From positions 19,220,001 to 19,284,000 of the forward strand of contig OZ024758.1 in assembly GCA_964016885.1 (NCBI GenBank): a DNA stretch of 64,000 bases. Reading direction: 5' to 3'. Shown in pieces: positions 6,773-50,686 of this stretch. The DNA is from Eledone cirrhosa (taxonomy: Eukaryota). Each line of letters starts with the position of its first letter. The first letter of the stretch is position 1. The notes beneath the pieces were generated by a model that was given only the letters and a program-made list of their open reading frames with translations, was not told the DNA's origin and searched no databases. A program made the translations under genes and the position numbers.

Positions 6773-6826
<54 letters not shown>

Positions 6827-7042
6827 GTTAAAGATGTACATCCATATATGTATACTGAAATACTAGTATGTATATGAATACACACACGTATACATATGTA
6901 GATGTACCAAGTTTTTTCACTGGTCACTTTACTGTGAGTGGCCAGCTATTCTGTATGTAAACACACAGACAATCCGGTTTTTAGAGTCATACTGGTTTTT
7001 GAGGAAACACCTTTCCTCTATTCTCCAGAAAGCCAGACAAGG

Positions 7043-7087
7043 AATATTGAACTAGTTTCGTTGTTGTTACAACTCATCAGCAATATT
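7043..7087 (-). ncRNA. Minimal type I hammerhead ribozyme
   Basis: Exact reverse complement of 7514-7558. Confidence 0.88.
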
Positions 7088-7513
7088 TACCTATCTTCCG
7101 GCCTCTCTAGAGAATCGTAAAAGCACATATCGTTATATGCTTTTTCTATGAAAATTAGTAGTGGGCATACTAATTTGCATAGAGTGTGATTAAGTACCGG
7201 TTCAACGGAGACGATAAAAACAAATAACGAAACGAAATTAAATTTTGTTTCATTTGTAACTCACTTTTGTATGACTGACGCTTAAACAATTAAGTTAAAG
7301 ATGTACATCCATAATTAAATTGTACATCCATAATTTGTACATCCATGTACATCCATAATTTAATTTCGTTTCGTTATTTGTTTTTATCGTCTCCGTTGAA
7401 CCGGTACTTACTCACACTCTATGCAAATTATAATGCCCACTACTAATTTTCATAGAAAAAGCATATAACGATATGTGCTTTTACGATTCTCTAGAGAGGC
7501 CGGAAGATAGGTA

Positions 7514-7558
7514 AATATTGCTGATGAGTTGTAACAACAACGAAACTAGTTCAATATT
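7514..7558 (+). ncRNA. Minimal type I hammerhead ribozyme
   Basis: AAUAUUG-CUGAUGA-GUUGU(AACA)ACAAC-GAAA-CUAG-UU-CAAUAUU: 7-bp stem I, 5-bp stem II, palindromic stem III ACUAGU, predicted cleavage after 7551. Confidence 0.9.
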
Positions 7559-7847
7559 CCTTGTCTGGCTTTCTGGAGAATAGAGGAAAGGTGTTTCCTC
7601 AAAAACCAGTATGACTCTAAAAACCGGTTTGTCTGTGTGTTTACATACAGAATAGCTGGCCACTCACAGTAAAGTGACCAGTGAAAAAACTTGGTACATC
7701 TACATATGTATACGTGTGTGTATTCATATACATACTAGTATTTCAGTATACATATATGGATGTACATCTTTAACTTAATTGTTTAAGCGTCAGTCATACA
7801 AAAGTGAGTTACAAATGAAACAAAATTTAATTTCGTTTCGTTATTTG

Positions 7848-7888
<41 letters not shown>

Positions 7889-50640: not shown

Positions 50641-50686
50641 ATTAGCCGACAATGTTTCGTCTTATTAAGGACTCATCAGGGCAATT
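50641..50686 (-). ncRNA. Minimal type I hammerhead ribozyme in a ~165-bp TA-flanked insert (50597-50763)
   Basis: Minus strand GCC-CUGAUGA-GUC(CUUAAUAA)GAC-GAAA-CAUUG-UC-GGC; canonical core and GUC cleavage triplet. Confidence 0.85.

Follow-up and report, generated by a model that had tools for sequence, protein, structure and literature searches.

How does a repeat that encodes no protein come to lie as two opposed copies inside a dinucleotide tract, and which molecule was copied to place it there? The question is raised by a locus at positions 6775..7878 of the window, the 64,000-nt stretch of the Eledone cirrhosa genome analyzed here. Our analysis identifies the locus as a single insertion of a hammerhead repeat that is young, abundant, and protein-free, a non-LTR retrozyme with a 467-nt unit. 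It was probably inserted into the (TA)n tract by a borrowed Penelope-type reverse transcriptase/endonuclease, which would have worked from both sides of the break on one ligated 467-nt RNA circle as template.

Throughout, unit position 1 corresponds to window position 7552, counted from the predicted hammerhead cut; the outer end of an arm is its RNA-sense 3' end, where reverse transcription would start, and the inner end is its 5' end. Between the left (6775..6820) and right (7855..7878) flanks of the (TA)n target tract, both read from the sequence, lie a left arm of 493 nt on the minus strand (6821..7313), a junction insert of 43 nt (7314..7356), and a right arm of approximately 498 nt on the plus strand (7357..7854). 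The left arm runs from unit position 204 round to 229, its outer end being a fixed site termed A, and the right arm runs from about 273 round to 303, its outer end being a second fixed site, B. The period of both arms is 467: an exact terminal repeat of 26 nt bounds the left arm (6821-6846 = 7288-7313) and one of 31 nt bounds the right arm (7357-7387 = 7824-7854). Each arm is the reverse complement of the other, begun in a different register, and 4 substitutions at 3 sites separate the two; this between-arm difference (4/449) is matched or undercut by 30% of other arms. Each arm holds one type I hammerhead, at 7043..7087 on the minus strand (from stem I to stem I; predicted cut 7050/7049) and at 7514..7558 on the plus strand (core 7521-7527; predicted cut 7551/7552), and both ribozyme-sense 3' ends point into (TA)n. 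A “tail” of 69-74 nt (7781..7854, plus strand) separates start site A (7780 or 7785) from start site B (7854), and only one of the two arms has it at its outer end. Because the insertion sits inside the TA tract, a target-site duplication cannot be recognized.

An earlier note on this DNA had described a 467-nt hammerhead unit in two inverted, circularly permuted arms within (TA)n, reverse complements with few substitutions and in different registers, each with one hammerhead and its 3' end directed outward. Re-measurement of both arms bears out this description, including the period and the terminal repeats; the end of the right arm, however, lies 2 nt further out, at 7854. The junction insert, which the earlier note did not describe, is templated and consists of three extra copies of the left arm's last 10-12 nt and a short fold-back of the right arm's start, and likely reflects template slipping during a presumed joining of two cDNA ends.

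Inverted repeats within microsatellites are hard to assemble, and the inversion might for that reason be an artifact of assembly. We consider the chance of this negligible, given that approximately 95 loci have the same build with differing flanks, arm lengths, junctions, and haplotypes, that the two arms here are distinguished by the 4 substitutions noted above, and that, in two public runs of one sample, the contigs extending from site B into (TA)n number 10 and 11. The locus-specific junction (7315-7349) is without cover in six public runs, and such a gap proves nothing. The unit 7357-7823 also occurs at low depth in runs X4, X5, and X6, labeled as three other organisms, with contigs that join across the unit boundary (for instance, a 497-nt contig, or 467+30, in X4); tandem DNA gives an equal picture.

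The ribozyme was examined through homology, structure, and variation among copies. The Rfam model HH9 matches each arm with 37.7 bits (E 1.2e-7; 7027-7098 in the left arm), under its gathering score of 52; at gathering scores, Rfam gives 0 matches in the window, and the miRNA-family matches that appear at loose thresholds were dismissed as TA/TG low-complexity only. The right-arm hammerhead has a stem I of 7 bp, a stem II of 5 bp, and a stem III of only 2 bp with a palindromic 2-nt loop. Hammerheads with a short palindromic stem III are a form that works as a dimer (PMC4209133), and the predicted cut follows GUU; from this triplet and the 2-bp stem III, weak, dimer-dependent cutting is therefore predicted. 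In the minimum-energy fold of the monomer, the catalytic stem III is absent, and the circular 467-nt unit folds at -139 kcal/mol (z=-7.3 vs 40 shuffles). Among 22 copies of two families, the 467-nt family and a 431-nt sister family, 15 core-region columns are invariant, and in the stems both sides have changed in 7 of 14 pairs. The covariation score exceeds 500 of 500 shuffles, a value inflated by the relatedness of the copies, and its support comes largely from the single split between the two families. Judged by these alignments, the hammerhead is a ribozyme under constraint. The cleavage triplet itself varies, being GUC in older subfamilies (L079, L080, L083, L105, and others), GUU in the youngest, and mostly GUA in the sister family. 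The absence of credible coding capacity, already proposed in the earlier note, is confirmed: frames read round the circle extend over at most 62 aa from stop to stop and 32 aa from Met. The G+C content of the unit is 160/467 (34%).

Within the 3.0-Gb host genome, the family is represented by at least 2,062 insertions, counted genome-wide as exact B ends adjoining TA, and by 9,236 exact ribozyme cores; since the reversed-pattern controls gave 0 for both, the pattern is not a product of chance. Further exact-pattern counts comprise 318 A ends, found with a narrower pattern for the young subfamily, and 39,652 cores of a wider group, with 0-2 matches in the controls. With the right arm as query, 297 matches in 39 candidate regions were scored, many of which are tandem runs in two divergent blocks. 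Copies are 86 to >99% identical to the window unit, and insertion arms reach 12-31 units with a 467-nt period. No ORF was found within any insertion mapped, where arms join arm to arm, and no LTR build in the loci mapped. Of the two outcomes that the earlier note had proposed for a BLAST check, tandem arrays are found, with arms of up to 31 units, but copies starting in many registers are not: the outer ends are fixed at two sites, and only the inner ends vary.

A sister family, with a 431-nt unit that is colinear with the 467-nt unit and approximately 65-70% identical to it, has the same two-armed build (L169:4475-5109, L066, L040, L168, L179, and others). It keeps the ribozyme with compensatory changes, and its outer ends lie at equivalent sites, 219 and 276. 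Positions 200-350 are the best conserved between the two families, which makes them a candidate binding region for the mobilizing protein.

The fixed outer ends were quantified in 149 insertions mapped in four sets: 34 picked by BLAST (window included), 40 chosen for a B end, 35 for an A end, and 40 held-out loci chosen again for a B end. One locus that duplicates another (L100, identical to L099) and alignments below 80-85% identity were left out. Site A lies at unit 226-236, mostly 229 or 234, and site B at 296-304, mostly 303; neither coincides with the ribozyme cut. When the four sets are pooled, 95 insertions combine A with B, against one clear A+A, one ambiguous A+A, and one small B+B. 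In the BLAST-picked set, 30 of 34 insertions are two-armed (26 A+B, 1 A+A, 0 B+B, and 3 with A and another end) and 4 are single arms, so that A+B accounts for 26 of 27 (P=2e-7). For the first B-picked set (n=40), the other arm ends at A in 26, in a stub of A in 4, and elsewhere in 2, and 8 are single; the held-out B-picked set (n=40) gave A in 22 (20 by script, 2 by eye), an A stub in 4, another end in 2, cut-off arms in 4, and single arms in 8. Across all 80 B-picked loci, alignment places the end of the other arm at A in 48, a further 8 have only a short A stub there, and none has B. The A-picked set (n=35) yielded B in 21, a B stub in 2, another end in 2, one cut-off arm, and 8 single arms; it also contains one pair of A ends that are separated by 945 bp and differ in haplotype, and one locus that additionally has the small B+B pair. 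In nearly every listed locus, the sequence next to the A and B ends is (TA)n or AT-rich, and one locus (L203) lies in a (CAT)n tract. The window locus is itself typical, an A+B insertion whose arms are close to the median in length.

Read from the sequences, these fixed A and B ends, one per arm, are the known Penelope “tail” footprint. Penelope insertions include an inverted 5'-truncated copy and a tail of 30-40 bp, often at one end only (PMC8557442, PMC3846280). According to PMC11167929, AT-rich DNA is cut on both strands in vitro by the Penelope protein of a lizard, which starts at two internal RNA sites bounding the tail and is predicted to be a dimer; the start sites are alike on the two strands, and insertion proceeds without a need for ribozyme cutting, unprocessed RNA being the main substrate. 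The 467-nt family resembles endonuclease-bearing Penelope-like insertions, as described in these three sources, in the head-to-head inverted copy, the two fixed 3' ends, the tail often at one end only, the AT-rich or microsatellite targets, and the variable 5' ends. It differs from them in having no ORF, with no reverse transcriptase plus GIY-YIG frame between its repeats as in autonomous elements, and in its longer tail (69-74 nt vs 30-40); its arms consist of many copies of a small unit, whereas a 3-5 kb element, present once or twice, makes up Penelope-like arms. Non-autonomous elements of Chlamys, such as MRC1, are similar in inserting as multiple head-to-tail copies and are Penelope-dependent (PMC8557442). 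As described there, however, their 3' end generally resembles that of an autonomous family, a partner not found for the 467-nt unit, and their clade is without canonical hammerheads, of which the 467-nt family has one.

The unit itself is like those of metazoan non-LTR retrozymes, as these are presented in PMC7229834 and in a 2026 preprint (10.64898/2026.07.22.740005): a non-coding tandem unit of a few hundred nt with a GC content below 50%, one type I hammerhead with a short palindromic stem III, a strongly self-paired circle, and dispersed monomers to multimers, for which Penelope-like elements have been proposed as mobilizers and circles as templates. The two divergent arms, the fixed Penelope-type ends, and the (TA)n target set the 467-nt family apart from the metazoan retrozymes described in these sources. 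Expression, cutting, and circles have been shown for retrozymes of other species and would be expected of the 467-nt family. For instance, retrozyme RNAs of coral, mussel, and axolotl are cut and circularized (PMC7229834); in the preprint, by Li, Clavereau and Pollet, 8 of 9 predicted Xenopus retrozyme dimers did not cut in vitro. The word “inverted” is absent from the main text of PMC7229834 and occurs once in the preprint, and in the literature searched, with subscription papers and supplements outside its coverage, two-armed retrozyme arrays that obey a strict one-site-per-arm rule are not described. The 467-nt element is a new animal non-LTR retrozyme inserted in the known Penelope manner.

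Penelope-like elements of the same genome leave a comparable footprint. An autonomous element with a 4,877-bp tandem unit (L141-L160) contains a 780-aa ORF that matches Pfam RVT_1 (E 2e-7) and has, as read by eye, a GIY-YIG-like domain after a cysteine cluster at its C-terminus; by the criterion given in PMC8557442, the sequence qualifies it as a Neptune/Nematis-type element. Its arms are divergent and have two fixed ends approximately 40 nt apart, with one of each in 7 of 7 insertions in which both ends are visible (20 stretches), and no hammerhead was found in the 4,877-bp unit. This family is very young, as 150 of 150 scored matches are identical over 138 aa. Between (TA)n and (GA)n targets, the A-type end of this family moves by 3 nt, suggesting that a short stretch of base pairing to the target is used in priming. 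A second Penelope-like family also has two fixed ends. No sequence shared with the 467-nt unit was found in the three Penelope-like families examined (30, 20, and 30 loci and 20 longer stretches), and these families therefore exhibit the footprint but do not reveal the partner. Similarly, no element with homologous ends was found at 20 loci with lone or variant ribozymes or at 10 single-arm or odd junctions; the ORFs near those loci were rejected as candidates, being unrelated neighbors. Genome-wide, a first look returned 16,000-61,000 Penelope-like candidates per protein query. Overall, mobilization of the 467-nt element by a Penelope-type enzyme is very likely. The earlier note had posited two priming events in the TA tract, which two-armed insertions with fixed outer ends support, and two entry points, which do exist; they are, however, not free registers of a circle but the family's fixed sites A and B, one per arm.

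The inner ends behave differently from the outer ones. Their 195 positions do not depart from a uniform distribution (KS P=0.20), and the inner ends of the two arms of a locus are unrelated to each other; these counts leave out 5 of 83 junctions, those with a fold-back of more than 10 nt. Microhomology of 1-10 nt is present at 52 of the 83 junctions; another 8 are blunt, inserts occur at 18, and 5 consist of long fold-backs. Within 4 nt of the cut, 8 of 195 inner ends are found vs 3.3 expected (P=0.02), a difference that is not significant for five other window sizes, so that any excess of stops near the cut is at most approximately two-fold and dependent on the window size. The median arm is approximately 590 nt, and the lengths of A and B arms are uncorrelated (rho 0.22, P=0.15). 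Since the inner ends are near-random, the 1.05-unit lengths seen in the window are chance 5' truncations. Copying “slightly more than once,” as the earlier note inferred for this locus, is therefore not a fixed property but random truncation: a preference for stopping 0-50 nt past the arm's own start after whole laps appeared post hoc (24 of 103 arms, P=0.003), but failed when set beforehand as a test on 40 new loci (2 of 26, P=0.90; pooled 26/129).

The template can be assessed by asking how arms relate to the ribozyme cut. A cut linear monomer would permit at most 234 nt from A and 303 nt from B, and this limit is exceeded by 35 of the 43 A arms and by 32 of the 43 B arms. The cut site is crossed 450 times, with 4 stops within 3 nt, and 485 of 491 passes through it, a count with a small double count from overlapping stretches, leave a clean junction. 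Over 639 units, divergence amounts to 3.05% when loci are compared, to 0.32% inside single arms, and to 0.23% when the two arms of one locus are compared, and 33 derived variants are fixed in all units of their locus (for instance, 18/18 and 17/17). Because arms reach 12-31 units, share locus-specific variants between them, and cross the cut 450 times against 4 stops, the template was continuous. On this point, the earlier note's claim of a template continuous beyond one unit is supported by the longest tandem arms. Its interpretation of the locus as the footprint of a circle or multimer stands insofar as the template is continuous, but the permutation at the window locus alone cannot separate the two forms.

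These counts bear directly on the idea that ribozyme-cut linear monomers were chained by end-to-end template jumps of the reverse transcriptase, which we regard as very unlikely. The scar-free passes (485/491) and the 4 stops in 454 arrivals speak against it, as do the uniform haplotypes of most loci, which jumps between molecules should mix, and the ratio of A>G to T>C among locus-fixed variants (10:5, P=0.21). Some observations fit such chaining: arms end at the cut site in three loci (L178, L198, and L076), one of which (L198) restarts at A after reaching the cut, and there is the weak excess of inner ends near the cut. Taken together, these arms and that excess indicate that some templates were probably cut linear RNA. 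The arm at L198:6030-6498 extends from A as far as the predicted cut, begins once more at A, and stops at the cut a second time; its sequence may preserve a trace of cutting and template jumping in vivo. RNA-editing scars were also considered and are not established: single-unit changes (A>G vs T>C, 12:28) lean opposite to the locus-fixed ones (contrast P=0.03).

Spread at the DNA level, through rolling-circle or extrachromosomal DNA circles re-inserted at breaks without an RNA step, would yield uniform concatemers as well. It would leave unexplained, however, the two fixed outer ends, used once each as in the autonomous Penelope-like element, together with the random inner ends and the conserved ribozyme. 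Counted in the RNA sense, single-unit changes are, in addition, strand-biased (30 T>C vs 15 A>G, P=0.04; L031-L200), a weak signal from one of several tests, in the direction expected if a reverse transcriptase misinserted dG opposite U. We consider spread of this kind highly improbable.

A different alternative retains the Penelope-type enzyme and the A and B starts and takes as template a long uncut linear transcript of an array, with unequal exchange restoring length and uniformity. Given uniform source arrays, it explains the fixed ends, the read-through of the cut site, and the shared haplotypes, since the long uncut transcript of a uniform array would likewise yield uniform arms. Uncut RNA is, moreover, the dominant substrate in vitro (PMC11167929), and the 2026 preprint (10.64898/2026.07.22.740005) favors local expansion by unequal crossover while reporting phylogenetic support for a circular template and a Penelope link. 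Variants shared by subsets of units are present in 4 of 13 multi-unit arrays, a 31-unit arm among them (46 mosaic variants overall, 13 of which come from one probable double insertion). In 9 of these 13 arrays, which were chosen for length, variants are confined to single units, none is common to a subset of units, and stepwise duplication has left no trace. A variant carried across 13-18 units of two opposed arms requires a one-unit bottleneck followed by re-expansion, which on an array transcript would also have to be fast, whereas a monomer circle gives both in one step. Most insertions, furthermore, are short, as the median arm length attests, so that long uniform sources are a minority, and the ribozyme conserved is of the dimer type. 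An uncut multimer thus appears rather unlikely as the general template, yet it is the reading to which we would otherwise turn: the family-wide data lean towards the circle, a monomer circle is the most likely template, and that it was the main one we hold to be reasonably probable. Array structure shows further detail. Two loci (L075 and L181, C1:5.738-5.752 Mb) represent a single arm of 31 units and 14.4 kb with period-7 and period-4 variant patterns, which imply that arrays also grow or exchange after insertion or that some templates were multimers. Along one arm at L058:3200-5081, the variants show a period-two alternation, the pattern that a dimer template would give.

A circular template and a Penelope link were proposed in 2014 (PMC4209133) and 2020 (PMC7229834). 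The proposal of Cervera and de la Pena (PMC4209133) holds that hammerhead-cut, ligated circles template more-than-unit reverse transcription, and to this model the 467-nt family adds genome counts that favor, but do not prove, the circle. The choice of ends (A and B once each), the random inner ends, the multi-unit arms, and the haplotypes common to both arms are read directly from the insertions. On the monomer-circle reading, the transcript of a multi-unit arm would be cleaved by hammerheads acting in pairs, and ligation would close it into a monomer circle. A probably dimeric Penelope-type protein would bind near the A-B region and cut both strands of a TA tract, whereupon one 3' end would prime at A and the other at B through 2-4 nt of pairing to the target. 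Each enzyme would then copy through the ligated cut site until a random drop-off, after approximately 1.05 turns at the window locus, and the two cDNA ends would be joined by microhomology, here with the 43-nt stutter. We infer the cutting and ligation of the RNA, the single complex for both strands, and the presence of both enzymes on one circle.

In its most specific form, this mechanism would be a bidirectional rolling-circle retrotransposition, in which one Penelope dimer works on a single 467-nt circle with one fixed start per strand of the double-strand cut and for up to a dozen or more laps; we advance it tentatively, as a serious possibility. If it is true, a viroid-like genomic circle writes tandem arrays of itself in a single step, and the strict pairing of A with B is a general rule of Penelope integration. 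Both the element class and the insertion footprint are known. The copying of retrozymes into DNA and the tandem or inverted insertion of Penelope elements have been only proposed in the literature, and the 467-nt family supplies thousands of young insertions. It not only offers base-exact start sites but also a countable one-site-per-strand rule, which is valid for the autonomous element of the same genome as well, and a defined RNA, two start positions, and a target are available for an in vitro test with purified Penelope protein.

Two further motifs were observed in the window. The octamer ATGCAAAT lies just 3' of site B, at 7421-7428 on the plus strand and 7173-7180 on the minus strand, and is conserved in both families; it resembles the snRNA-promoter/POU site and could be part of an internal promoter. 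Finally, other hammerhead-like motifs, belonging to other repeat families, are located at 50679 (-), 26505 (+), 8324 (-), and 718 (-), and the cores of these four are seen again in 2 to 23 of the other loci examined.
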